The notes under the pieces: generated by a model
Seen by the model: the letters and a program-made list of their open reading frames with translations, nothing else
Told to the model about the DNA's origin: nothing
Databases searched by the model: none
Assembly: GCA_000708835.1 (NCBI GenBank)
Contig: DF237459.1
Location: 2,266-66,265 of the forward strand
DNA: 64,000 bases
Source: Klebsormidium nitens
Lineage: Eukaryota > Plantae > Klebsormidiophyceae
Direction: 5' to 3'
Position numbers and translations under genes: made by a program
In this document: positions 12,847 through 64,000 of the stretch, in pieces
Layout of the letters: the number at the start of each line of letters is the position of its first letter
Numbering within the stretch: position 1 is the first letter of the stretch

Positions 12847-15800
12847 TCACGCCTGCTTGCCACGTGGCGCGAGCGGGTGCGGCGGATCGTCGGGCCCCTG
12901 GTCCTCGGCTCTTTTTAGAATCGAATCGTTGAAGTAGCGCTGCGTCGAGAGCGCATAGTCGAAGACGGGCAGGTCGGTCGCGTCCGAACCGAACGGGTCC
13001 GCGAGCGCGCACGACAGCTCGCGCAGGCCCAGCAGCGAAACCGTGGTCACGAACATGCCGACGATGGAGTAATAATAGCTGCGTGAGACAGGGGATTGAA
13101 AGGGATGATAATAGCTGCGTGAGAAAGAGTTTTACAGATGAGTCAAAACAGCTGCGTAGAAAAGGAGTTTGAATTTGAGTAATGCTAGCTCGAAAGAAGA
13201 GATTTGACAATGGATAAGTAATCGCTTGAGACAAACGATCAAAGATGAGTCAATACTTATTGCCAGAGACAAAAATGGAATATGAGAAAAAGGGACTGAA
13301 TATAAGTAATACCACCTGCCTGGGACAGGAAAAAAAGATATCTCACCCGTGCAGAAACCAATGAGGTAACATTTCAAGGAAGAGCTCATTCATCAAGGAT
13401 TGAAGGCCCGTCGGCAGATGGGCAAACGTGACAGAGGGAGGGCAAAAGACCTGTCCTCGTAGCAGGAAAGCAGGAGGAAGCAAGAATGATTGCGTATGCA
13501 GTAGAATCAGCCAATTTTTTACGTCTGGAAACATCAATGCATTCAACAATAAGGGGACGTCAGTGCTAGGACGGGTGGGGGTCAATGCGGGTGTGGATGC
13601 GGGTTCGGAGCGTGCACCAAAACGGAAATGGAAACGAATCCGGAAACGGAAACAGAAGTCGAAACGATACGCAAGCAGAAGAAGGTACCACACGAGTACC
13701 GCGTTTAGGAGGTGCCAAACGGACTTCGAAAAGGAAACGGAAACGGAAACGGAAACGGAGACGGAACGAAAACGGAGATGGGAACGGAAAAGGAAACGGG
13801 AACAGAACGGAAATGGAAGCGAATACAAAGCCTTCGTACCTGTACATACAGTACGTGTATGCGAGCAGAAGAAGGTACCCCACGGGTACCGCATCCAGCA
13901 GTGACAAGCGGAAACCGAAGCGGAAACGGAACCGAAACGGAACGGAGATGGGAACGGAACTTTTGTACCTGTACATACAGTAAGTGTGCGCGAGCAGAAG
14001 AAGATACCCGACGAGAACCGCGTTCAGGAGTTGACAAGCGGACACCGAAACGGAACCGGAACGGATACGGAGATGGGAACGGAATTTCGAACCTGTACAG
14101 ACAGTACGTGTACGCGAGCAGAAGAAGGTACCCCACGAGTACCGCGTTCAAGAGGTGGAAAAAGGCGAAGGGGACTGGCATCGCCAGAAAGTCATTGACG
14201 GTCCCGATATTGGCAATGACCTGCAGACACGGATTTGGCGTCGGTTCAGTGCCGCAGTCACGCTGACGTCACTCTGCGACAGTCGTCTCTTAAATGCAGT
14301 TTCGCAAATACAGATAGAAGGGCGCTGCTGTCAGATTGACTTCCAAGGTCGTCACCTTCGGCACTGCTCTGGAGAAAGAGGACTTCAGCTTGTGGACATA
14401 TATGACGGTCTTGACCGGCGCCAGATGTATGCAAACCGTTTGAGTATGCTAAACATTCTGTCAACTGGCACCTCTGGGGGTCGGTTGCTTACGTCGCTCG
14501 TGAACGTCACGAACCGGTCCAACTCGACGTTGCTGATGTCACCGTTCCGGAAGTGCGCGTAGAAGCGCTGGTAGATCCACATGGCTACTTCCTTGAATGC
14601 CTTGCCGTCTGGGAAATCGATCCAAAAACGGGTTAACAGACGGGCAAGCGGGATTACTCAAACAGGTTTGAAGGCGAGCGAAGAAACGGGGAGCCGGGTT
14701 TGAAAGGGGTTAGGAATGGGTGGAAGATAAAAATACTGGATTACGAAGCGGGTAAGTTGGTAAACGCAGAAAAATTAGACCAGGTTACGAAACGCGTTAG
14801 CACGCATGCAACTCTGCCGAGGTCTCACCTAAAGTCATAATGTGTCATAGCGGGGTAGCAAACAAATGGCAAAACCGCAAAACAACAAAAGTCCATTGAC
14901 TTTTTAGCTATTTCGAGCCACTCAAAAAGGATCCGGCTCGCCGATACCTGCACTTACCGAAGGCGGTTAAGCACGACCACGGTCGCTACGTGGAGCACAG
15001 TGCACTGAAAACGGCGACCTCAAAGGTGACACACGGGCCTTTAATTCAGTCGCCCAAAAAAGCTGTCTAGCGCGCACTTTGATTGCTTAATTGAGATCTC
15101 TTGGAGCATCAAAATCACTGGGGACTCTCCGCAGCCGGGTGACCTCAGCAGACGTCAGCAGCCCCGTGTCTTCGACGTGCTGCCAGGCCCACGCGCCAGC
15201 CCCGTTGGTCTTATAGAACGGCAGGTTCGCGTATGCCAAAACTGCACGGAAAGCGTTGCTCTTATATAACGGCGGCTTTGCGTATGCCAGCCCCGTTGGT
15301 CCTATAGACGGCAGGTTTGCGTATAAGAGAACTGCACAGAAAGCGTTGCTCTTATATAACGGCAGGTGCGCGTATGGCAGCACCGTTGGTCTTATACAAC
15401 GGCAGGTTTGCGTATGCCAGAACTGCACAGAAACTTAAAGCTGTCGGTCTTATCATAGAACGGCACGTTCGCGTAACTCAAGACTGCAGGTACCAAAAGC
15501 GCTTGCTTTAACTATAAACGGCAGGTTATCACTTGGACAGAACTGCAGCAATGCGTTGCGCTTACACCAGCTCTCGTAATCTAATCTTGAGCGGCAGGCC
15601 TGCGTATGCAAGGACAGTATGGACAGCGTCCTTCTTTCAAAACGGAAGGCTAGCGCACTGTGTCAAAAACTGCGGGAAAAGCGTTGGTCTTGTAGAACGG
15701 CAGGTTCGCAAACGCCAGAACCGCACGAGAAGCGGCCACGTAAGCTGACAATAGGCTGCGTGACGTCACTTTGACATGTATATATGCCAGCGAAAACATT

Positions 15801-31500: not shown

Positions 31501-34500
31501 GCAGCCGGCCGCGGGGCAGCGCGACCGCGCAGTGACCGCCACGCGCGCACGGCGCGTCGCCGCTCGCGCGCACGCGCTCCCAGAGCGACAGCTCGGCGCC
31601 GTACGCGAAGAGTTCGTTGGTGCCAGAGCCGCCGCGGGTGGTGCCGCCGAAGAGGTAGAGCTTGGAACCAATCTGAGGAGGATAGCAGATGAGGAATGAT
31701 ATGACGTCACATTCTGCCAGCATAAAATCAATGAATGGGAAGGCGGTATTCAGGAAGGCTCCGTGAGCGTTCAATGAGTCGACGCTTGGGCGGTGCCGCC
31801 AAAGAGACCCAGCTTGGAGCCAATCCGAGGAGGACAGCAGATGAGGATTGGTATGACGTTAGATCAGGATTACGTCACTTTATGAGAGTGCCCTATGTTG
31901 CGGCTCTATCAACGCGTTCAATTGTTGGTGCCGGAGCCCCTGGGCGGTGCCGCCAAACAGGTACAGCTTGGTGCCGATCTGAGAAGGACAGTAGGTAGAT
32001 GAGGATTGGTATGACGTTAGATTCAGGATTACGTCACTTTTGAGAGTGCGGTGTACATGACGGCTCTATTAAAGCGTTCAATTGTTGGTGATCGAGCCGC
32101 CGCGGGTGGTGCTGCCGAAGAGATACAGCTTGGAGCCGATCTGACAGAGGAAGCAGATGACATCAAAAGCCATCTTAAATCCCTGTATAGTTGCTTCTAA
32201 GAAGGCGGGAGATGCTGATAGGAAAAATGTTGCAGTCGATATAGTCTTCGCTTCAAGAGAACGCGGTAACGTCACGGCTTCGTGTCGGTGAAGATGCTCA
32301 AGTCCCCGGGCACCACTGCGGCACATTGACTCGTGTCCGGCCCGATAAGTGGAAACTGTTTTCTATCCAGCCAACTCGCGTTTCGTTTTGTATTATCGTG
32401 AACAATCGAGTCTTGAAACAGGCCTCGAGATACGTTTCTGGCAAGCGAGTCGCACTTCCCCTGTGAAAACGAGTGTGCTCATCGGAGGAAATCCGGATCA
32501 CGTAGAAGGCATGTGCATTTTTATCAAGCGATGCGGTGAACTCCCACTCCAATAAGGTGCTGCGGGGCTTCATTCCGTGGGCACTTTCGAAATGCTGTCC
32601 GTTGTATTCTGGGGGCCGCATGTGGCGTTTTGTCATTACAATCAAGCCGTGATAAACACAAAAGAAAACGAACAGAAGGGATTGCGCTGAAGTGACTCGA
32701 AACCAACTAATTCTCACCTTGGTAAGCGTGCTCCGGTCCCGCTCCGTGGGCACGTTCACACTGCTGTCCGTCAGCTTCTGGCGGGTGTGCTGGAGCGTCC
32801 ATGGCAATGCGCCGACGAAGACGGTGTGCGTGCTGCGCGCCATTGCTAACCGTAAGTCGTCCGCACTCTGCTGCGCCGTCCGAAGAGCGCCTTCCAGCCG
32901 ATTGAGGTTACTCTGCAACGAAAATTCGACAGATGCGTTTACATTATAGTCGCGAAACTGATCTGTTCTAAGAGTTTCTGTTCTAAGAGTTTCTGACGTT
33001 TTTCGCCCTCTTCCGATCAACATCCGTTGCTAGGAAGCGTAGTCCTCCCACCTCTGCCGCGCTGTCCGAAGAGCGCCCTCCAGCCGATTCACATTGCTCT
33101 GCAAGAGAACGTTAGTCTCAACTCTTTCGCGGATGTTTCAAACGTCGGTGAACGCCTCCGAGCTGTTTAGTCTTCGTATTCGCATTTACTGATGGTACGT
33201 CGTCCGCACTGTGCTGCGCCGAAAGCCGAGCGGCCTCCAGCCAATCTGGACTGTTCTGCAAGAGCATGTCTACTTTTGTAAAACTCATCAGTTCTGGTTA
33301 TCTTCCGATTCCACATTCGCACTTAGGAAGCGTAAGTCGTCTGCACTCCGCTGCGCCTTCTGGAGGGCGCCTTCCGCCTTCCAGATTACTCCGCTAGAAG
33401 AGTTTCAGCTCGTTTCCTTGATTATCTTTTACGATAGGAGTGAACTCGCGAGCTCTCCGCCTTTTCCGTCTTCAAAGCTATTCGCTTATGCCTTGGAGGG
33501 TAGCATGCCGTCTGCAGTCTGCCGCGCCGTCCGAAGGGCGCTTCTAGCCGAAACGGGTCAATCTGCAAAATCCTATTCCGAAGAGCGGAGTCGTCAACTC
33601 CGAGCTCAGTTTCTGAAGTCCTACATGCTTAGTTACTTTCGAAGATCATTTGCTTAGCCTTTCGACAAAAAACAGATGGTCCACTTAGTCTCTCTTGATC
33701 GCGTTTGCCAACTCTCCCTTTTACCCTTTCCCTACCGTCCTTTCTGTCCTGCCGTGCTCTTTTTCTTTGCTTCCAGTCGAAAGCACACCGAAAGATAGGC
33801 GACCAACAGAAGCAAGAAAGCAGGCAAAGTGTCGCCCTCACCTCGTATATCCGAATCTTCGCCTCCCGCCCCTCTAGTTCTGCCTCTAGTTCCCTTATTC
33901 TCGCCAATGTCTTTTCCCGCTCCGCAACGACCGCCCCCGCCTGCGCCATCTGCTGCCGCGCAATCTCTCGTTCCCGCTCTAGTTCCTGGACCCGCAAGTC
34001 TCGCGCCTCTAGTTTCGCCGTGAGGTCGTCGACGGTCTTTTGGAGGTCGCTCGCGATGGCCGAGCGCGCGGCGAGCTCGCGCTCCATGTCGGCTAGGACG
34101 TCGTCGCAGTCCTGGGGGCAGAGCGGAAGCTTAGCGAGAAATCCGGAGCGGAACTTATCAATATCAAGAGAATCGAGGAGGGACGAAGTCAGGATAGATA
34201 CAGAGCGCGAAAGTGCCGCATCAAGCGCGAGATGCCGCACGTGACAATTTGGCTAAGATGTCGTCGCAGCCCTCGAGGCAGAGAGGAAGCTTAGCGAGAA
34301 TTCCGGCGCTTCAGAAGATTTCTAAAGAACATCAAAAAGGAAGAAATAACAGGAAGATAGATGAAAAGCGCGAGAGTGCCGCACGTTACATGTCGGCTAG
34401 GACGTCGTTGCAGTCCTGGGGGCAGAGCGGAAGCTTAGCGAACATTTCGGAGCGGAGTCTCGAAGATTCTGACAGACTCGAAAAGTAGGGCCGAAATGAG

Positions 34501-36448
34501 GATAGATACGAAGCGCGAGAGTGCCGCATCAAACCACACGTAACAATTGGGCTAAGATGTCGTCGCAGTCCTCGGGGCAGAGAGGAAGGTTAGCGAGAAA
34601 CACGGAAGTGCAGCTTCAGAGACTTTCAAGAGGACAACAAGAAGGAAGAACGACAGCAAGATAGATAACAAGCGCGAGAATGCCGACAGTACATGTCGGC
34701 TGGGAAGCGTAGTGGTCTTGGGGGCAGAGGGGAAGCGTAGCGCCACATTCAAGATGCAGGCTTGCTTGGGGTTGACGTAAGGCTATCCTATCTAAAGAAC
34801 TATGCGTTTCTGCTTGATTGTAGCCTTGACTCCAGGGCCCGCCAGCGCGGCGCCTGCTAGCGGAAGAGTTGCATTCCCTCGAACCACGAATCAGCCACTT
34901 TCGAAACTGACAGGAAGAATGACGATCGGCTCTTCGCAAGAAAAGCAGCAACGTTCACGTGAATGTAGACAGAAAAGCCGTGCTGTATGCCAGCTGTGTA
35001 AAACGTCCCACCAAAATTACAAGGTTCAAAATTCTAAACAGCCCAATCCATGGCCAGAAAAACAATCTACCCACCTGTTTGACCGTGATGATCTCTCTCC
35101 GAAGGTCGTCCCGTGCCCGCATGAGCTCCTCCGCTCTCTTGTCCGCAAAGGCGGTTCCTAATTTGGCCTGCAGAACGAATCCAAGCGCTAATTGTCAGCC
35201 ATTTTCGATAACACGAAACCTAGTTTCCAGAGGGAAAGTGAAAGCCCCCAACGTAAGGGGACGGGTAGGATCTTTATCATGGGAATCGACACTAGGTAGG
35301 CCTTAGTCTAGGATCTGACATGCCTCTTAGATGCATTTCTCCTGTAAGTAAAAGGACCACTTTCCTCAACATTATTTGAAAGCAGACCGGAAGCGGTGCA
35401 ATGCATCTGATTCGATTGCCCGTCCAAAACTCTCCCTCATTGGGGCAGCACGGCTACAGTGAAAGCTCCTGAGCAACGAGAAGGGGTTTAGACTGAGAAC
35501 ACAGATTGAAGAGGGACTCAGACGTGCCGTGCCAGACTCTCATTTGTATGTGCTACCATGTCCTAACTGCGGCGTTGGGGTGGTGTGAAAGGTTGCCAGA
35601 CTAAATAGAAATCTAAGTCTCGAATGGCCCAAGACAAAATAAATTTACTTGGATGCTTTCTGGATGATTATGCTGGTGTCTGGTTCTATATCGCATGTGA
35701 ACTCCTGCAGCTCTATCAGTGTCATCAACCATGCCAAAACAATCTCCTCAATGATTTTACTTGACATGGAATTCGACAGACACTGGGGGGCAGGACGAGG
35801 GCTATATCACAACAGGCATGGTTACCAGGTACGTGAGAAGAGACCAGCAGGGATCAGCAAGGTCAGCTTACGTAACGGCGAATTGGAGATTGACGGTGCA
35901 TCTCCAGAACGTCAGATTTCGACTTGACAAGAATTCATGGCGGAACAGTGCGGTAAAGTGGTTGCATGATTCGCAGATGTCGTCCTCTTTGTGGAAAGAA
36001 AGTCAAACAAGCGGGAGCTTTCTTAACATCCAGCAAACGTAAGCATGATACGGAGGGTAGAATTTATCTTCTTGAGTACGGCATAAATGGGAATCAAGCT
36101 CTCTACAAAAGCACAAAGGAAATGCAACAGACAATCGGATTCGCAGGGAATGATTTCGAGGGCAGTTTTTAAACAAGTTAATAAATTCAAGTCCGATACG
36201 TATTGGCTTCACAGCATTGCAATACTTTTTATGTAGCCAAAGAACGTATTACTCATCTCAACCCCAAAACAAGGATACATCACAAATTCCATGTCCCTTC
36301 CAAGGAAATAGCGGCTCCTTCTTACCTCCTCTAGTTCCAGCATCAACTGAGCAATCCGCTCATCCTTCTTCAGTGCATCTCTGTCTGCATCGCTGACCCC
36401 GTCCGCGGCCTTGTCTGCCTTTGCGCTGCCCTTCCCTTTCTTCGCCAT
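25547..36448 (-). CDS. ~685 aa protein: N-terminal coiled coil, Kelch-repeat propeller, C-terminal FN3 domain
   Basis: Exons 36448-36326, 35167-35075, 34111-33842, 32912-32718, 31672-31433, 31015-30851, 30288-30154, 29892-29793, 29484-29413, 28585-28355, 27737-27651, 27243-27152, 26415-26302, 25690-25547; all phases match. Kelch motifs: PTERDRSTLTKIGSKLYLFGG, ARGGHCAVALPRGRLLVFGG, PAPREGHAATMIGGRYLLISGG. FN3 motifs: VDVTWRVPP, EVYSGTEDHFHLSGLRSGADYYFRVK, LWS. Confidence 0.85.
29235..34745 (-). repeat. Multiple intronic arrays of decayed exon-junction copies in the Kelch gene
   Basis: Donor copies of exon 29484-29413 at ~29235 and ~29310. Acceptor copies of exon 31672 at ~31790-31830, ~31940-31985 and ~32095-32145; of exon 32912 at ~33040, ~33210, ~33330 and ~33500; of exon 34111 at ~34250, ~34390, ~34550 and ~34700. 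Confidence 0.85.
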
Positions 36449-37148: not shown

Positions 37149-37338
37149 AACTCGGACTAATTTAGGTATAATAAGCGGCAGGTATAATATTAAGCTCCAC
37201 AGGCTGGGACGGGTGGGGTTAGTTTGGGGGTTAGGGTGGGTACGGGTGTGGAGCAGGTAGATGGCTGGGTTAGGGTTTTAGTGTTAGTTGGAGCTTATTA
37301 TACCTAGCTCTTATTATACCTAAATTAGTCCGTCAATG
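37149..37338. mobile_element. Non-autonomous foldback/MULE-like MITE, copy A (190 bp, 9-bp TSD)
   Basis: Direct repeat gcctaaaag at 37140-37148 and 37339-37347. Inverted arms ggactaatttaggtataataag (37154-) and cttattatacctaaattagtcc (-37331). G-rich core tagtttgggggttagggtgggtacgggtgtggagc is shared with copy B. Confidence 0.75.
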
Positions 37339-42464: not shown

Positions 42465-43253
42465 AGAGGGCACGTCTTAATTCATGACTTCACGTACTTT
42501 GACACCATCACCCGTGCACGGGTTTAACCAGATTTGCTTCCCCAGAGGCAATATTCAGGCTTGCTGGGTTTTGCTCGCGCGGTTCGCGGCCGGCACGTTG
42601 CAGCCGCGGCCGCGGGCGCTTGTGCTGAGCGCCACCGTCCGGCCCCGGACGGTTCAACTTGAACGTCTGAGGTCTCCCGGCAGTCCGGTCATCAGTGCAT
42701 CTCAATGCATGCATATATGGAGGTCGCAGCGCTGCCAGGCACCGCAATGAGGCCCGCTCGTCCGGTCCCGGGCCACCTTTCGAATGATGTGCAATTTACC
42801 ATCGGTAAATTGTGCAAAGCACTTACATATGCGCCGTGCACCGATCATTTCACACATGTGCGGCGTTCAAATCTACTTAATGCATGATTGATGCCCATAT
42901 GGCTGAATGGGTTCGAGCCCTGGCCCTTGCTAGCCGGATCTACAAACGTGGAAAAAGCTTCAGTTGAGATACACGGCCTCAAGAGACTCGTGCCGGACGT
43001 GAGCTTTGAAAGTGTGTTGCGGTGTTTGTGACTCATATCTTGGACGGGGCCCCGATTGGTACATAAGCGTGACTGCAAAACCTTCTCAAATTGCGCAGCC
43101 ATTGCACATGACCTGGCCGCTTGGTAGATTGGCTTGAACGTCCCGGATCATTGGCTTTAAGTGCACAAATCCACCCTATGTGACATCAAACCGAAGACAC
43201 CAGGGAAACGACTGAGGAAAAGCTTAGGAACATAGCCTCTCTCCTGACTTCTG

Positions 43254-51976
<8,723 letters not shown>

Positions 51977-52403
51977 GTTTGAAGCTCCGCCTGGGAACAA
52001 TCCTGTCAGATGCGCGGCCCAGTTCGAACTTTGATGAAGAGAGACCATGGAACTGCCTGTGGAAGGAGGGATGTGAGAAGAGTGCTCGCATGCTTCACGG
52101 TGTTACCACAGAAAAGCAGAATGCTTTAGAACGTCAGCGGTAACGACTCCCGTCCCGTTTCGCAAACAGGTTGAGAGGGGGTGTTACCGCTGAAGTGGCA
52201 AAAAACCGCCAATTCCCCGGCGCCATGGTGATCCCTTCCTTCTGAAGCCTGAGCAAACTTCACTTCCCAGAGCAGAGTACCTACTAAACTGAGAGTACCT
52301 ACTAAACCTCATGATGCCTCAGGCAAGTTTTGTGATGCATTTCACGTTGGCGCTTCAGAAGCCTCTCAACAGAGCTCAGAGCCCTTTTCCTGCAATCAGC
52401 GCC

Positions 52404-53090
52404 ATGCCTGCTTGTGATGTCTGTGGATGCGAGACAAAGAATCGGTGTGGCCGGTGCCAAGCCACTCTCTACTGCACTCGGGCGCACCAGGCGGAAGCCT
52501 GGAAGCAACACAGGCCGTCGTGCATTTCGCCAGCTCCTGAAACAAATGTCCATTTCCCAGGGTATACCCCACAGCCGAGTTATGATCAAAGGGGCGAAGC
52601 TAGATGGGCCATGGACTGAGGTACAAATCGACGAAGACGACCCCATTTGGACGGAAGGTGTGATCTGTCCAGTCCCGCATCTGTTTGGGTGCCTTTGATT
52701 ATTTGGAGGCACATCCGAAGGGACCCACTTTCTTCCCCGCGTGACCAAAAGCTCGACAACCAGCCCGCAACCTGGCTCATGATCGATCCGCACACTGGGT
52801 TCGCGCCTCCCGCCTGGCAAGGCAATGTAGGCCCCGTGACGATCGCACGGAGCGATAAGCAGCCGTTGCTATCGGCGCAACTTGACGTGATCCATGAGTT
52901 CATGAGCCACTTGCTGGACATGTTTGGTGTGACGGGAATGCCTGGTTCGGTTCCCCGCGACAGAATGGGCAGGGACGCGTTCCGGCGGTTCTGGCGAATG
53001 ATGGTGCCCGGGAAGAAAGCGGACCAGCTGGTGTATGGACGGAACAGGGCCAATCAAGTGGACTGGGATGCGGTGCCGTGCCCTTGCTAG
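52404..53090 (+). pseudogene. Intronless MYND-type zinc finger gene with two compensating frameshifts
   Basis: ATG 52404 encodes CDVC-x7-CGRC-x4-YC..AHQAEAWKQHRPSC (MYND pattern). The protein-like middle segment (RVMIKGAKLDGPWTEVQIDEDDPIWTEGVICPVPHLFG) is in the +1 frame. The C-terminal segment (PLIIWRH..DNQPATWLMIDPHTGFAPPAWQGNVGPVTIARSDKQPL) returns to the first frame, which has TGA at 52617-52619. Confidence 0.65.
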
Positions 53091-55210
53091 TGGGCGAGAG
53101 AAAAGGTGAGTTCAAATTTGGCTGGTAATGTGATGTAAGAGCTCTGACCACGTATGGTCTGTTTCAGCTTGGTTGGAATTCTAGCGAATGCATCTGTGGT
53201 TTTGGTTTCAATTGCTGATAGAGCCATTGAGCAAATGAGCTGTTAAGGTGCTGTCAAGCTGTTAAGCAGTTCAGCTGCGGTTAAACCGTTGAGCTGCCAG
53301 CTTCTTCAGCTTTCTGTCCTCCTAATGAGAAGCTGCTGATTTCTTCAGGATGTTCCTATCTCTCTCCTTGGACAATCTGGCTGGTGACTCTCTTATATTC
53401 AGGGCTGGAGACATGCAAGGCTAGAGTCGGACTCTGTCCTGCACTTAGAATGAGGCTTGTTAAGCAGCCTCTGAGCATGATGAATCTTCATTCTGAGCGT
53501 GGTGAATCTGTTAGCAGTAGCTTTTGTAACTGAGTGCTGGCAGTACCATTCAATAAAAAGCCTACAAATGTACCTCACGTCGTGAACTACCTCAGACTTC
53601 ATTCTGCAATCATCTCAGCATGACTGGTGGTAAGTGGCACTTGAATGCCAGCTGGACAAATGCAGCAACGCAAGGACCAAGGCTGTTGAACCATCAGATG
53701 GGTTGACATTACCGATGTTTTGGGGAGGGACCCATGAAAGTGTTCTGAGCAACCCAGCTCTGAGAGGTTCCAAAGCCTCAGTACGAGGGAAGCATTTGGA
53801 GCTTTGCTGGTGGCTTACCAACTAGTTTACCTTTCTGTGACTTAGCTGTCGTCCTTCCAGACTTTCGATTTTGTCAACTTCCACTTCGATGATTTCAGAA
53901 CTCTGGGCAGTGCCGGGAGCTAGAGTGAGCGTGTCCTGATTCTTTGTCTCTTAGTCTGATGTTTGCAACAGCTGCGGCAGTTAAGGATTGCTTTTCCTTT
54001 TCGCTCAGAGCATTGATGATTCCGTTTGAGCGACGCCCCAATAAATTTTGGCGGAGGAAGTGTCCATAAAGAGAACCGCTTTCAGCCATCGGCTTTGTTT
54101 CCAGGTAGTATTTCAGGGCAATGGAAAGCGAAATGGATCTTCGTCACCAAGTTTGCGGGCGACTCAAGTCCTGGCACACAGTGGGGAACGAGCTCCGGGT
54201 TGGCTTCATCGAAACTTCTTGTCTATGAGTAGAGGATAAAAGTTAATGTATGAACCATTTCTGTTGGCTTATCAATCTGCGAACGCTTCTTGTTTGTCTG
54301 ACGTGCAGGTCAACTAGACATGTCGCTGTTTAAAGGAGGCCTGAACGACGCCTGAAGACAATTTAGCCAGGCCAGAACGACGCTTGAGAACAATATGTAA
54401 ATAGAGACGGACTAGGGGAGATCGGCACTTTTGCTGCCCGTTTTCAAACGGCGCGTGAACCCGGATGAGCAGCTCGATGCCATGATGTCGAGTCAAGGCT
54501 TTGATGTGTTTGATGCTGCCAGTAAATCGTGCCAAGAAGCTTTTGGTCGTCTATGCAAAGAAGGCTGTGGAAGCAAGTTTCTCTACAGGTTTGTTTCGGA
54601 GGCATGGCTTTGAGTTCCTTGGCCATGTTAATGGTAAGAACTTTGACAACAATATATAACAACTTTGTTTTTGGATCCGATCACTTACAGCTTCAAATCT
54701 GCAAGCTGTCATTACTGAGGAAACGGCTAAAAGCAATCGCATCCCAACTTGAATGGGTTGCCTCAACAATGACCGTTGTGGGCGTTTGGGCTTATTGTGG
54801 GCACCACAGTGTAAACGTGGAAATATGGTGAACGGCATCGACTGACACAGTATAGCCTCATGCGGTTTTCACAGTCTTCTCACATGTGCCACTGCAATCC
54901 GATGATCGATCTGCGACACATGCACGCGTGATATTGATCTGTGACACATGTCATACTCAGTGATCTGATGATCTGTTGGAACCATCTCAAAGTTTGTCGA
55001 CCCTGCCGGATCATATGAATCAGAGTCTAGCGGTGGAAACTATAATCCTATACCTTTTAAAACCCCCATTCAACCGAAGCCAATTGAAATATCGGCCCTG
55101 CGTCCGTAAACGTGTGACTAGTATGCATGGGGCCTTTCTATTGAAAACAGTTTTGAGTAGAGACATGATACAGTGGAAAGACGAAGGAGGGTACGTTGCA
55201 TTCGCCGATA

Positions 55211-56193: not shown

Positions 56194-57151
56194 GGCGGGC
56201 CCGCCTTTACGATCTGGGCTCCTAATTGTTGTTTTTTTGCCGCAGGGGAGCAGTACTCGAAACCTGCCTGGCAAGAACAAGGACGGCTGCAAACGGCTGA
56301 TTGTGGGGGCGCCATGAAATGGGTCAACAGGCTATGATGAAGGAGCGGCAAGGATCCTGTAGGTTGGAGAAAGCAAGTTTAGGTGTATCTCAGGCTGATC
56401 TGCTTCTCTGCTGTTCCCTTATCATTTTTCAGAATGAACAGATCGGCCAATTTATTGTCCTCAGTGCACTGGTGGGCCCGGGGCTACTCGACTTAAGGGA
56501 TCACTGTTGAGCCGGTAGCTGCCGGTTCTCGTCCTCAGGCTCTGGCTTACACGAAATTTACCGACTGACACCCACGGCAAGTATCCCCGAGCCTGCACGT
56601 GACCGTGCCAATACGCTATGTACACGGGGCTGACGGTTATTACATCGGACGGTTTCTAGGCACTACCGATCATCCGACGGTGCATTTCTGATTGCCTCCT
56701 TCCTTTACGACTTGTACGTACGACTTCTCGATGATTCGGAGTCCTGAGTCAGCTGGGCTGCCCAGCAAGACTACGGGTCCGAGTCGATCAGTACGGTAAT
56801 CAGAAGTCTAGGTACCGACTGCTACTGTAGCTGCATGAGCTGCATGCTCCTTGCATCATGCCGGTCTGGCCAGTCCTTGCTCAGCATTCAAGTCGCGAGC
56901 CGTCTGACACATGTTTCTGAGCTGGCAAATGATTGATCGGAGGTTGAGACCGTACAGGATGTTCTGTCGTGAGTTGGAGCTGTCAGACTCAGGGATCTTC
57001 TCAGGTTGTGCTTTCAAGGAGCCGTAACGTACGCTTGCAACGGTTTTTGTCGTGTCTGACGTTGCGTTGTATGCACGGATGACACGTCTGCACCGACAAC
57101 CTCCTGTGGCAACCTGTGCTGTTCTGCTGTGTGCAGCCCGTGTGCAGTGAC

Positions 57152-57242
57152 TTCCCATTAAGTTGCTGGGAATTGTCATTACTGTCGGCAATTGTCGGCA
57201 ATTCCCAATTATTGCTGGGAACCGTGAGACGGGAGTATAAAA
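57152..57242 (+). promoter_or_regulatory. Putative promoter of the primase-helicase gene: two TTCCCA-N8/9-TGGGAA dyads plus TATAAAA
   Basis: ttcccattaagttgctgggaa (57152-57172) and ttcccaattattgctgggaa (57202-57221) are separated by tgtcggcaat x2. TATAAAA is at 57236-57242, ~490 bp before ATG 57730. Confidence 0.5.
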
Positions 57243-59473
57243 GACCTCCAAATCTCACTTTGCAACTTCATTTTCCGAGTTCAAGATTCAGGAGCGCCAG
57301 TAGGAGTCGCCGTACTCAGCCACTGCCTGAGGCTCAAAGCTGCTACTGTCTGCACGTAACCCTCAAGCTCCTAAGTGGATGCTGACTACTCTTATACTCT
57401 TGTCCGAGTCAGTCTTGTAACCCTAGATTGGCCTAGATCATGCACTTGGTTGGGCTTCACTGAATACTCACTGAGGTCTGCCACCTTATACCGGCCAGGC
57501 TACTAGCTCAAGTGACCCACTCAACCACCGTGGCCACAGACTCTCTCAGTAAATACTAGCACCACTTCCAAAATGGAGCTGGTTCATTGTCCAATATAGC
57601 TGTACACCCATACAGCCCATACAGCAAGCCCATACTACAGTAAGCACAGCCACCTGCAACCCCACTGCTGGCCTCTTATGATACTGCCAGTGGTACAGTA
57701 AAGAGTGTTACTATTGAAATAAGTAAATCATGGGGCTTTACAACCGTAAGGACTTTGAAGACTTTCAACGGGACCTGCGGGCAGCGCAGGCAGCTGCAAC
57801 AGCAGAACCCGCAGCACCAAGCTGTACAACCACGTCCGGGTCAAACGAGAAAGCGCAGGAGAGTCTCCACACGCCAGGCCACAGCAGAGACTTCTTGGCA
57901 GTAAGAAGCTCAGCTCCCTTCCATAAAGAGGTAACACGGTGTTATAGAGCTTCTCCATGTTTGTTTAGACAAGGCCGGGCACAAAGGCATGGATCATGCA
58001 GACCTGGGGGCTGCAGGTCCTCGTATGATCTCCGTCTAACACTCTGTTCAACTGGATGAACAGTAATCACACTTACCTTCTTGCAGGAAGGATTCGCAGA
58101 ACTCCAAGCTGAAGTTGAGGCGGCGCCGGCTGCTGCCACTAGACGCCTGATCAAGGGCCAGCGAGTACTAAGAGAACAAGCGCCCGCCGGCCCTTTCAAC
58201 GACGCTGACAACGGAGTATTGGCCGATCTTGTTGAAGAAACGGAACTGTACAATCATGTTCCACCGAAGGAAGCGCGCCGGCGAATCGTGCTTTCGCAAG
58301 AGCAGGTGCGTTATTTCCCTTCGTTAATTAAAAGGGTGATTTGCCTCTTTAGTTCACAGTTGTATTACCTTATTCACAACCTGGCAAGCGGATCTGGTAG
58401 GCTTGCTCTTAGTTTTCAAGCTTCAAGGATCTGAAAGCGCATGACCTCAGCCGTCACACCGTTTAGTGCGGGAGCTCGAGCTCTTTGTCAGCTGCAAAGA
58501 GATGCATCCAGTCTTGGGAAGGGCGCTTGAGACCTGTTGCAGACTGGATCCCCGCAAAAAATGCCTTTTAAATCGGAGAGTCGGACGTGAAGGTGTCTTG
58601 CAGCTCTATGCAGGATCCGTGCTGATCTCAGATGACTTTGTCCGTAGAATATGCTGACAGCACAGCTTTCTGCATGCAAGGAGGACGACGGGGATTCGGA
58701 GCTCGACGACGGGATTGACCTGGAAAACAGCGAGGAAGAGTTTCGACCGAGAGCCCCCCAGCCATCCAGAAACATCCGAGGCGTGATCGATGACTCCCCA
58801 ATTTCCGATGATCTTCACGCGCTGAGACAGATGGACATCGAGTTGGACATCAGGACGGAGGCTGCGGCAAGCAGGGAGGGAGACTTCTTGGCCCAATTAG
58901 AAGCGAAGTACACTGAGAAGCGCACACAGTCCAAGGTGAGCTCGACCTGCAAACGGTGGTCATCCAGCTGCCCGAGTGGCCAGTTGCAGCTGAGTGCATG
59001 AGTGACAACTGACCTCAGACTGCACAACTTGCAGAGCATTAGCGGTTGCCAAACGGACACAAGTTTCTCGTTTCCCGATGTCTTTTGTAGCGGCCGGTTC
59101 TGTGAGTCCAACGTCACGAGATTGTCCACTCAAAGACAGAGGCCCTTGAAGCCGATTGCAATTGCTTGGATGCAGATCTGGGTTCCCGACTGACAAAGTT
59201 GGCCGGGCCAACACAGAGACTAATCAACTTGGTTTATACTTTGATTTCGATCTGGTCAAAGCTGACAACGAACAAACTTACTGAGTTCCAACATTCTTCG
59301 AATGCAGGAAACTAATGTAAGGCGGAAAAGGAAGCGGACAGGGGGCGATGATGATAGTGCAACGATGCCGCTTCCGGTGCGTGCCAACGAGGTTGAGGCT
59401 GGACAGGAACTTGACGTAAGCAACGCTTGAGAGGTTTCCGCAAGTGCAAACGTGCTTGTGCGAATCAAAGCCC

Positions 59474-62357
59474 GGGAGTAAAAGTTTCCTGAATGTATGT
59501 ATTGACTCATCTTAGGGGATTTTTACTCCCAAGTTGGTAAGGCTTTCGTAGTGACGTCTGCTTAGATGACGAGCTGGTTTGAACGGGGCAGTGTTTGCTC
59601 CAAGTGAGCACGTCGACTGGTCGGTTTTGGCTATGTCTTCTTGCGTTATAACAACAGTTTTCCCGACTGGTTGCAGCCCGGGACTGATGCCGAATTCCGC
59701 CCAGGACCGCCAGGCTACCGCCGGGGTGAGGGGTCCAGCAATCCGAAGCCTCAAATGGTGAGCAGCTTCGAAGCCGGAGTTCTGGACTCTGCTTGCTTGC
59801 TCACTTGCCTGCCTAGTAGGTTCCTGCAAGCTACGGAGTGCTGGACAGGAGCGCCGATTTTCCAAAGCTGCTTTGAAGTCCGGAGGGATTTCTGATGATG
59901 GGCCTAAAGAATAGATCAGGCAAGAGATGCGGGATCACCAGAACAGGGAGGAAAACGCCCTTCTAAGTATAGCAATTGACTTATCTCAAAGGGTTTTTAC
60001 TCCCGACCCTTGAGACTAGAACGCTCAAATCCTGAAGGGCGCTGCAAGACAGGGAGCAAAAACTCTCCTAAAGTATAAGAATAAGTCCACTCAGGAAGTT
60101 TTTACTCCCGACCCCCTGCCATACCTCCTCACACCGGACTGTCTCCTCATGCAGGACACGTTCGGCCAGGGCTGGTTCTACAAGAAGGCCGAGGCGCTCG
60201 CATACCAGTCTGACAACGACCATGCGCTCATCGTTGCCAGTGACATCAGCGCCGGCAGCGGGGCCAAGAAATACACCAGCTTTGCTGACGTGGACGCTCT
60301 CGTTGCCTACCTGGAGTGCTTGCGGGCCAGCGAAATCTCTCCGTGCCTCAACGAGTGCCTCGAACAAGACACCCCCTGCTTGATGTACTTCGACCTGGAC
60401 TACTCCGTCCCGGCGCAGGCTGATGCCGACTTTGAGGAGCGCTCAGGGCACTTCTTCCAGGTTGCGCGCCGCTTCCTCAAGTAGGTCCTCGAGATTCCCC
60501 CTGAAGCAATCGCTTTCCAAATAGCCACGGCCCACGGCCCGGCTGCTTCTGGAGACGGGTACAAGCACAGCTTGCACGCGTGCGTCCCAGGGTTCTACCT
60601 CACCGGCTGCAAAGCCCGTGCAGCATTTAAAAACGCCCTACAAATGTTCACTGCAAACCCTCCCGAGGACCTGCGGCGCAGCTGCGAGTTCCTCAGGTAC
60701 CAAAAGGCGAACGGCAAAGAGGACTGCATCCTCGACTTTGCTGTGTACGGGCGGGGCCAGCTGTGGCGCACTCTCTACTCCGAGAAGCTGGGAACGGGTC
60801 GCCCCCTCGTGCCATCAGTCGGCAGCTCGGACAAGGTGGAAGACCACCTGGTGGGCATCTACAGCACGGTCCCGACAGCGTCGGCGCTGAAACCGTGTTC
60901 GACCGACCTGCTGGTGGCATACACCCGGCCAGCTGGCGGCGCGCGCGCACGCGGGGAAAGCCAACGGCCCCAACCGAGGACTGCTGTGGCAATCCGAGCG
61001 CAGTATGCCGACGAAAGGCCCCAACCCGTCAGCCCATTGACCCAAGTCGAATGCGACCGGCTGCTGAAGAGGTACCAGAGGGATCACCCTGGAGCTTCGA
61101 TCGCTCGGGCTCCCGAGCATCTTGGTGGCACCATTTTTGCGGTGCACTTTGATGTTCCGGAACCGTACTGCTGGATTGCAGGGCGCGCCCACCAGTCCCC
61201 TGGCAACTCTTGTGGTTATCTGGTCTACGACAGGGCCCACCCATCAAAGGCCCTGTACCGCTGTCACGCTGGTGATTGCAGGTAAGCTGTCACGCGCCCT
61301 CAGATCAGCTCGTCACCAATTATTGCAGCAAAGCGTGCTTGCTTCGAATGTATTCAGAATTTGTCACGCGCCCTACTTCTGAAGAATGTGAAACACTTGC
61401 AAAGATGCTTAAGTTCGTTGCACGATCCTGGATCAATTCCGAGCACGCGGCCAAGCTTTTGGTAAAGGTTCGCACGCAATTGAAGCATCCGTTCTTGATC
61501 GTTTGCAGTGGGACCGGCAGCCATGGCCAGAGACTCCAACGCGTTTTGCTTCTTGATGGGGACCACATCGAGAGCTGGACGGAAGAGTACGAGCTGGTTG
61601 GGCGGATGCGCGCATACCCTGTGCCCGATCTGAGCCCCGGCGCGACACCTCTCACGACGATGGTGATGGCCAACATGGGGGCCGGGAAATCAAAGGCGCT
61701 GTTGCAGAAGCTCCTTCCAAAGATTCCCCCGAGTGCTTCGATCTGCATCATCGCTCCGAACATAGCGCTTGCTGACAAATACTTAGAGGATACCAAAGCT
61801 CAGGAGCCTGGCTTCGTGTCCTACCGAGACGAAAACCTGACAGGGAGAATCACGTCAAAGCGAGTCATCGTCTGCGTCAATCCCCTCCCCCGGGTGCTGC
61901 CCCGATTCGACCTGGTGGTTCTTGACGAAGTCAACTTCACGCTGACTAACATGGCATCCACGGTTATGAAGGACAATAAGAAGGTTTTCTTCGCTCTCGA
62001 GGGCATTGTGGCGAGCGCCAAAGCAGCTTTCCTCTGCGACGCCCATCTGAACAACCCGAGAGTGGTAGAGTGGGTTCAGGCGCTGCGGCCGGACAGTAAG
62101 TTTCACAACATCCGCAACACTGGGGTCTGGCCCACAGAACGCAAAGCGGAGATCCTGCCCATGCCGGGGCCCCTGAAGGGGAGGGGCCAGCCTGCAGCCA
62201 CTTTCAGCTGCATAATTGAAGAGATTCTGGACCACGTGGCGGACGGGAAGAAGGTGATGGTAAGGGCCCCGTTCCAAGGCTATACTTTTGCACTCTGAGT
62301 GGGAGTAAAAGTTCTTGAAGGTGATCATTTCATATACTTGAGCGGACTTTTCCTCCC
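59474..62357. repeat. Four 57-59 bp palindromic units, consensus GGGAGTAAAA-N37-39-TTTTACTCCC, all intronic in the primase-helicase gene
   Basis: U1 59474-59530, U2 59946-60004 (left arm gggaggaaaa), U3 60052-60109 (left arm gggagcaaaa), U4 62301-62357 (right arm ttttcctccc). Arms extend imperfectly to ~20 bp around an AT-rich centre. Confidence 0.85.
60155..61281 (+). other. PrimPol/herpes-UL52-clade archaeo-eukaryotic primase domain with C-terminal Zn finger (sub-feature)
   Basis: GAKKY (cf. GxRxF), motif I NECLEQDTPCLMYFDLDY (DxD), motif II YKHSLH, motif III LDFAVYGRGQLWRTLYSEK, and Zn finger PYCWIAGRAHQSPGN..YRCHAGDC (C-H-C-C spacing as in PrimPol/UL52). Confidence 0.88.
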
Positions 62358-63441
62358 ATTCAACCTCCCTGCCCAGCAGCGCGCGCATAGCTGGCAGCAA
62401 AAGCTTCCCAGATGCACATGCTGTCCTGCTTGTAGATGTGAGCTCGGATTCCGGCCCTCAAGCTGTGCCAAACCTCACTCTAACTGGCCGATCGGTTTAA
62501 TGACTGCAGGTCCCTGCAACGAGCAAGACTTTTGTTGAGTTACTGGAAGCCGACTTCACAAGACGTTTTCCAGACAACTCAAAGACGATCATCGCGTTCC
62601 ATGGAGGCAAGAGGGGTGGGAAAGACAAGGCTCTGCTCCGAGATGCAATCCGTCACCCTGACAAAGCCCTTCTAGCAGACGTGCTGACCTTCACGCCCAC
62701 GATTGGCCCTGGGGTCTCGATTGAGAAGAAGCAGAGCTACGATCTTGTGATCGGGGTGGCCGTGAACTCTGATAACCACCCTGATGCACAGGTTATGATG
62801 CAGCAAATCCACCGAGCGCGAGATGCAGGTGACATTCGCGTTTTCTATGGCGAGCTGAAAGGCAGTCAAAAGGTGGTCTACCCCGGGGACAAGGAGGAGG
62901 TTTTTCGACGTTTGGAAGCAGACGATGAGTGCTTGGCGGACATGATGAAGGAGGTGGGCAGTACTGACCACTTGGACATGATCAGGGGAAAGTCTGGCGA
63001 ACGGGCCATCTACGATCGGAACTCTCCAGCCTGCAACCTCTACGCCAACAATATACTCGGAAGGGCTGAGAGTCGACATCGGTATCCTGAGCTTTTGGTC
63101 GAGGATATGCGGCGACAGGGGTTAGCCGTGTCCGACTTCACCGGTTTCAAATCGGTTGACCATCGACCAGAGGCGGAGGATGTGCAGATGGAGGCTGAAG
63201 AAGAGTTGACCGTCGAGGAGTGGCGGTCAAAGCATCTGATCTCCTACGACACCTTCGAAGACATTCAGAGGAGATTAAGCAAGGATGTGAGCCCCGTCGA
63301 GGTTCTGAACTACAATATCTGGGAGAGGGCTATCACGGAGTATGGGGTCATGTACGCGAATCTGGATCAGGACTTTGCAAAGACCTATGTGACGGGGAAG
63401 CAGGCGGAATCTCTGAGGAACAAGTTTCTCAACTACCGGAG
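61509..63441 (+). other. SF2 helicase of the herpesvirus origin-binding protein (UL9) type (sub-feature)
   Basis: Walker A VMANMGAGKS, Ia ICIIAPNIAL, VIVCVNPL, Walker B FDLVVLDEV, III FLCDAHL, IV KKVMVPATSK, V DVLTFTPTIGPGVSIE and VI MMQQIHRAR. Motif order and content match my recollection of the UL9/Herpes_ori_bp family. Confidence 0.85.
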
Positions 63442-64000
63442 GTGAGCGAGTTCTCTGCCCGAACGCACATTGACTCCTATGTCGGCCCGTTCAAAACAAG
63501 CTGTACGACTGCTACAATAGCGTTATGAAACCAAGTGCTGGCCGATTTTGATTGTGGTCAATACAACAATGCAAATACCTGCAACCGTCTCTCGTTCCGT
63601 TCATATCCGTTGATCAATCGTCGTTCAGATCTTTGGGAAAGAATATGTTGCAATCATGACCGTAGCTAAGAGGACTGGTCACGCGCTTTCCTAGTTGACT
63701 CCAACTTCTCTTCTGTTTTCCATCATGCAGATTCGTCACCTCCGACTTCGAAACCCAATCGAGGAGCCTCCCCGACGCCGTTCGAGAAGGTGAGGAGCAG
63801 AGGAACATCCAAGATTATCTGGAGTTTCGGAACCAGCCGAGCAACGGCGTGGCATACGCTTGGGCGATTTTGGCGGCTCTCCAGGGCGTGGCACCGGAAG
63901 AGGTTGACAATGGGGTGCTCCTTTCTACTCCGTACCTGGTTTCGGAGAAGAAGTTGCTGCAAGTCTTCGATATGCCGAGATTCAGGATCGTATCATTATT

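Follow-up and report, generated by a model that had tools for sequence, protein, structure and literature searches.

The stretch of DNA analysed here (the window, 64,000 nucleotides from Klebsormidium nitens) raises the question of what four short palindromes, laid out like herpesvirus origins, are doing inside a gene for an origin-binding type of helicase. An earlier note on this DNA had described them as GGGAG(T/G/C)AAAA-N37-39-TTTT(A/C)CTCCC, beginning at 59474, 59946, 60052 and 62301, and all four are indeed there. Copies 1 (59474-59530, 57 bp), 2 (59946-60004, 59 bp) and 3 (60052-60109, 58 bp) lie on the forward strand and copy 4 (62301-62357, 57 bp) on the reverse strand, inverted relative to the others; copy 1 has both of its 10-bp boxes perfect and the highest symmetry of the four. 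No other match to the pattern occurs in the window, and none of 100 dinucleotide shuffles yields any. The exact half-site GGGAGNAAAA is found eight times, every time within one of the four palindromes. A profile made from the four copies found no fifth in the remaining 61 kb (best other match 8.2 bits, E = 0.37), in agreement with the earlier note, in which no copy had been noticed in the other 57 kb. A cluster of four sites spanning 2.9 kb in a window of 64 kb has p = 3e-4 under uniform placement, a value that counts copies 2 and 3, which are not independent. An exact 15-mer shared with the core of copy 1, lacking arms, was also observed at 13233-13260 on the reverse strand; one of 400 shuffles reaches such a length.

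Once the four copies are oriented alike, their ends differ sharply from their interiors. No variation is seen in 19 of the 20 end columns, whereas only 8 of the 37 inner ones are free of it (Fisher p = 8e-8), a pattern unlike the even decay of neutral copies, and the palindrome ends are thus under more constraint than the interior. The right 10-bp box is identical in all four copies and the left box varies at base 6 only. Between like-oriented copies the inner scores are 17-19, against 10.7 ± 1.6 for 134 unrelated matches to the same pattern. The four palindromes are one polar family in which copy 4 is reversed relative to copies 1-3. The arms had been said to be better conserved than the spacers, which holds, but the spacers are still homologous and polar and hence not free to vary. 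The centres, described as AT-rich, measured 68-71% A+T, against about 50% G+C in the window as a whole. The imperfect arms of some 20 bp fared less well: the 10-bp boxes are strong, but beyond them strict Watson-Crick pairing is found at only 4-6 of 9 positions, and the full length is reached mainly if G-T pairs are counted.

The host is a spliced gene on the forward strand at 57730-64000 (predicted start), which continues past the window end and is laid out as an AEP primase, a zinc-binding region, a UL9-type SF2 helicase and a C-terminal helical domain. The exons modelled from 58107 to the window end comprise 1227 codons with a single stop, and introns make up 38% of the gene. The primase exon (60155-61281) contains the motifs DxD, SxH and D, read directly, followed by a C/H-rich region; it matches Pfam AEP_C962R at E = 3e-4, which is below the family cut-off. 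Helicase exon 1 (61509-62259) has intact Walker A and B motifs and matches Pfam Herpes_ori_bp at E = 1.6e-12, and exon 2 (62510-63441) holds the rest of the helicase and the start of the C-terminal domain. Pfam and fold matches alike therefore support the identification of the gene as an origin-binding helicase, more precisely a UL9-family helicase fused to an AEP primase.

All four palindromes fall between exons, as had been claimed. Copy 1 lies in an intron at 59377-59676, whose GT..AG joint is seen in one contig of run X5, and copy 4 in an intron at 62260-62509, whose GT..AG joints are seen in runs X5 and X6, both runs being probable RNA by our guess and not on record as such. For copies 2 and 3 the host intron (59758-60154) is a prediction based on its GTGAGC..TGCAG ends and the continuity of the frame, with no RNA joint listed for it. 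The intron around copy 4 matches in position an intron of the paralogs, and the exon-sized open reading frames of relatives lose similarity at that point. The gene thus appears to be transcribed and spliced, insofar as the guessed RNA status of these runs is right.

The idea that placement in introns preserves the reading frame did not survive for this copy, in which an in-frame TAG (60482-60484) interrupts the primase exon; a DNA contig of run X3 that covers 59686-61319 shows no differing letter. As regards the primase, this copy of the gene has likely become a pseudogene recently, by virtue of that one TAG. In runs X5 and X6 a paralogous helicase matching 61906-62089 was observed on a contig of 2.8-3.9 kb at a depth of 82-130, compared with 2-8 for the pieces of this copy. 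Contig depth is a poor measure, yet an expressed intact paralog is plausible.

How far does the likeness of the protein to UL9 extend beyond the helicase? The family profile matches OBP chains at E = 1e-47. The model of an intact paralog, P0162 (mean pLDDT 83), has HSV-1 OBP-OriS as its best PDB match, with residues 459-1143 placed on 41-812 at Z = 24, and its N-terminal part matches the fold of human PrimPol at Z = 21. Results for the C-terminal domain come from this paralog, the last part of the window gene extending past the window. With the C-terminal 295 residues of P0162 alone, the top match among 48,161 chains is again OBP, 170 residues aligning on 547-812 with Z = 5.9 (within the chance range for helical domains) and an rmsd of 5.4. 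Such a Z proves little alone, but given the rank of the match and its corresponding position in a homologous protein we regard it as suggestive. Foldseek found no match for the C-terminal domain alone at E 0.001, and sequence similarity to UL9 is confined to the helicase. In UL9 the C-terminal region holds the origin-binding subdomain, which is responsible for origin recognition (available portion of PMC13483431). The string RVKNL is in none of the Klebsormidium proteins and in one of 186 proteins, a distant relative. Near the protein end, a basic helix is found in three of the Klebsormidium paralogs and also in their nearest relative from outside. As far as these models indicate, the family seems to have retained a C-terminal domain of UL9 type, though a diverged one.

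The closest named relatives of the gene are themselves K. nitens proteins, at 55-66% over the helicase exon; two further paralogs bring the named K. nitens members to four, namely KFL_011070010, KFL_005960040, KFL_002040040 and KFL_001380250. Other relatives include many exon-sized ones, a 90% cluster of eight members in other data sets and several broken copies; multiple paralogs, a tight cluster and broken copies together look like a mobile multi-copy family. More distant relatives are proteins of about 1100 residues (624 at E 0.001), whose fold matches are giant-virus origin-binding proteins. The fusion of AEP to a UL9-related helicase, which is the hallmark of the viral primase-helicases, is present here according to both Pfam and fold matches. 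The same order of AEP and UL9-related SF2 helicase is described for mimivirus R8, ASFV F1055L and some mriyaviruses in the accessible part of 10.1101/2024.02.29.582850, and giant-virus genes have already been reported in the Klebsormidium genome (PMC5294986, in the portion available). Protein-based scans of viral, metagenome and prokaryote contigs found no locus for a protein of the Klebsormidium clade.

Two of the paralogs and a K. nitens Prim-Pol/D5 primase gene (P0005, P0048 and P0156) have an ESNPGP motif ahead of their replicase domains, which we take to be a 2A-like ribosome-skipping motif. This hints that the elements are built to a common plan into which different primase-helicases can be fitted.

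Upstream of the helicase gene lie a MYND-finger gene and open reading frames without assignment; the downstream side is beyond the window. The MYND-finger gene (52300-53090, forward strand, Pfam E = 1e-9) consists of two adjacent open reading frames and may or may not be part of an element with the helicase gene. A coding-like fragment spread over two frames, without Pfam match and possibly a pseudogene, was seen at 54416-54659 on the forward strand, and exons that by eye resemble a NOP2/Sun RNA methyltransferase gene at about 43250-52340 on the reverse strand. Neither an integrase nor a capsid gene was identified near the helicase gene, and no recombinase, HUH or transposase gene was identified among the upstream open reading frames, few of which were covered by Pfam.

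Could the palindromes simply be transposons? MITEs are short non-coding elements with terminal inverted repeats, and a tiny non-autonomous MITE-like transposon with 10-bp terminal inverted repeats might have inserted repeatedly into the introns of this gene, either by short-range hops or because insertions into this gene family are tolerated, with its ends conserved through recognition by a transposase. The palindromes resemble such elements in being short and non-coding, in having terminal inverted repeats that begin with GGG, in occurring in both orientations and, for copies 1, 2 and 4, in having flanks unrelated to each other. Other small elements with terminal inverted repeats occur in the window, and an intron-only location is what purifying selection would leave of any insertion in a gene with this share of introns. 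Yet none of the four copies, despite intact ends, has a direct repeat touching both ends, so that the absence of target-site duplications reported earlier is confirmed, and the rest of the window is empty of copies. Copies 2 and 3 do have common short flanks (ACA before, GACCC after), from which local duplication of that pair is likely. The palindromes further differ from MITEs in being only 57-59 bp long and in clustering in one gene.

Read contigs bear on the same alternative. Four runs were compared with window positions 56500-64000 at 80% likeness, two of which (X3 and X4) are DNA from one sample. In each of these two, one extra contig, and no more than one, matches copy 2 with its flanks, skips 34 bases and matches copy 3, all at 80% or above, in a homologous intron context. 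Past copy 3 the contig runs on into a paralog-like intron end: 30 shown letters resemble the 3' end of this intron, and the further letters do not match the primase exon at 80%. Paralogous coding sequence was matched in short stretches only, at about 80% at best (36 differences in 184). A second homologous locus therefore appears to have kept copies 2 and 3 no less well than the exons, on the evidence of one contig per run in a comparison that omits differences near contig ends. An identity of 90% for copy 2 was set aside for that last reason. Depth over copy 1 was flat at 80% likeness, which argues against a young high-copy family, although older copies at 60-75% identity would escape such a comparison. 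Taken together, the lack of target-site duplications and of other copies in the window weakens the tiny MITE family without refuting it, and we regard it as a rather unlikely explanation.

The other small inverted-repeat elements in the window are of a different kind. Two elements of about 180 bp, at 37153-37332 and 44222-44399, have terminal inverted repeats of 37-38 nt that are 92% complementary, and each has a direct repeat of 8-9 bp situated 5-6 nt outside the arms. Their arm sequences differ and their G-rich interiors are 77% alike; they resemble MITEs of the Mutator type whose arms can be exchanged. Several tandem arrays, degenerate and repeating every 90-190 bp, were seen at 674-1268, 13728-14154, 15195-15433, 31787-32160, 32838-33541 and 34063-34742, and are apparently duplications on the scale of introns and exons.

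The folding of the palindromes bears on two further alternatives. If they were hairpins in the transcript, serving as small-RNA precursors or as splicing or silencing signals, they should fold on the sense strand, as copies 1 and 4 do strongly (z = -4.6 and -4.3) in a gene whose transcription and splicing, on runs of guessed status, fit this idea. But sense-strand folding is weak for copies 2 and 3 (z = -1.6 and -2.2), copy 4 is inverted relative to the rest, and no match in the window reaches the gathering score among 4227 Rfam families. We consider intronic RNA hairpins improbable. A strand-specific model with G-T hairpins was likewise rejected, as the better-folding strand is inconsistent among copies.

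That same inconsistency counts against sites for a site-specific recombinase or for a nuclease that recognises single-strand hairpins, by which copies of some larger element would be cut out, flipped or resolved. Site families with attC- and dif-like features provide the model for such sites. The length of 57-59 bp, the polar core and the unequal arms would suit them, as would the hybrid-like make-up of copy 1, whose 3' half resembles copy 2 (83% over 30 nt) and whose 5' half resembles the reverse complement of copy 3. Against this, the nearby open reading frames so far assigned by Pfam, few in number, include no recombinase or HUH gene, and exchange between the copies would sever or flip the very gene that carries them. 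To our minds recombinase sites have a slim chance of being the right explanation.

The search for the palindromes in relatives gave a mixed answer to the expectation that they be conserved in paralog introns: copies 2 and 3 recur at the second locus, but no close copy is evident in the intron read-through tails of 10 relatives, which scored at most 8.3 (nulls to 9.3, positive controls 17-25). A palindrome that by eye seemed to be encoded in the read-through peptides of relatives was not confirmed in 25 tails and then in these 10 (P0028 8.3, P0172 6.3). Decoding P0010 and P0157 in two frames gave GGGA..TCCC-like ends with 14 of 25 positions paired (z about 1.8 versus the window copies), which is a weak lead.

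Beyond Klebsormidium, matches to the bare pattern were found in at least 134 loci (15 viral and at least 119 metagenome) and were dismissed as unrelated, none of the 134 encoding a relative and the best inner score being 15.25 against the 17-19 of the window copies. Fourteen of the 15 viral loci (L001-L006 and L008-L015) belong to one jumbo-phage-like family, in which a 61-bp stretch with the same ends and an unrelated centre lies between a helicase-like gene and a ribonucleotide reductase gene, both labelled by eye.

Two giant-virus relatives were fetched. In one of them, about 10 bp past the stop codon, a perfect inverted pair of 12 bp flanks an AT-rich spacer of 43 bp (L136:8347-8413), an arrangement that 8 of 100 shuffles of that locus yield somewhere. 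The other has only a short hairpin directly after the stop of its AEP-UL9 gene (L135:7879-7918). Hairpins can mark transcript ends in giant viruses (PMC4402537, in the part available), and since these two palindromes may be of that kind rather than origin candidates, they lend weak support.

The closest functional model is HSV-1 OriS with its initiator UL9 (OBP; PF02399; PDB 9hgi and 9hgj). In the available text of PMC12543377, OriS consists of inverted Boxes 1 and 2, one base apart, around an AT-rich spacer, and the comparison with two inverted boxes around such a spacer, drawn in the earlier note, holds for each of the four copies. The two systems have in common a UL9-family SF2 helicase, probably a related C-terminal domain, unequal inverted boxes, the AT-rich spacer and several redundant sites (the last three, for HSV, from the same portion of PMC12543377). 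They differ in the sequence of the box, in the want of a Box 3-like partner and in the protein, which lacks RVKNL: neither the HSV box sequence (Table 1 of PMC12543377, as far as available) nor the third box of OriS* is present, and there is no extra exact half-site beside the elements. Unlike in HSV-1, the algal primase is fused to the helicase, and the gene is spliced, nuclear and carries the sites in its own introns.

The roseolovirus oriLyt offers a second parallel. Its OBP-1 and OBP-2 sites are bound by U73, and dyad symmetry extends between the boxes (accessible section of PMC4944276). It shares with the palindromes the two boxes of 9-10 bp, the inter-box dyad symmetry and the AT-rich spacer; it is, however, intergenic and single in a herpesvirus genome, and the likeness is one of layout. 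For the protein, the nearest parallels are the mimivirus, ASFV and mriyavirus primase-helicases, which likewise join an N-terminal AEP to a UL9-related SF2 helicase; the best viral fold matches are giant-virus proteins of this AEP-SF2 type. These viral genes are intronless, in contrast to the algal gene, and the accessible part of 10.1101/2024.02.29.582850 names no palindromic sites for them (neither 'palindrom' nor 'hairpin' occurs there).

On sequence and analogy, then, the explanation that we prefer is that the palindromes are conserved candidate cognate binding sites, and probably origin sites, of the UL9-type primase-helicase of a virus-derived mobile gene family, a reading to which we give an even chance of being correct. 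Under this binding-site reading, the C-terminal domain would bind two boxes, a strong (perfect) one and a weak (variable) one; melting of the A+T-rich core would fall to the helicase and priming to the fused primase, much as UL9 acts at OriS together with separate helpers. New copies of the site might arise by local duplication and inversion, with no need of a transposase. Their place in introns could reflect the scant other non-coding room in a compact mobile unit and the purging of insertions into exons. An intact paralog could still act on the sites of the TAG-bearing copy. In a variant of the same reading, the gene would repress itself through the same sites. The further step, by which a spliced, virus-derived replicase gene with its own herpes-type origins in introns would be a mobile element that amplifies itself within the nuclear DNA of a streptophyte alga, follows by the same analogy and is put forward tentatively, at well below even confidence.

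Each of the parts is known, but their arrangement, in which a spliced nuclear gene for a UL9-type replicase carries origin-like sites within its introns, appears to be new. In searches of full-text papers we found no description of palindromes for this primase-helicase family, nor of a cellular multi-copy element that spreads by way of a herpes-like initiator. Herpesvirus UL9 proteins have known cognate DNA sites, and in the literature available to us, seen in part, none were found for the fused primase-UL9 helicases of giant or small eukaryotic DNA viruses. A 10-bp box that is present eight times, with graded strength, inside the gene itself offers a cheap and direct binding test for this whole class of proteins. 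If the sites do fire as origins, a cellular genome holds a multi-copy element that copies itself by means of a herpes-like initiator, and a UL9-type initiator and its cognate origins would be at work outside any virus.
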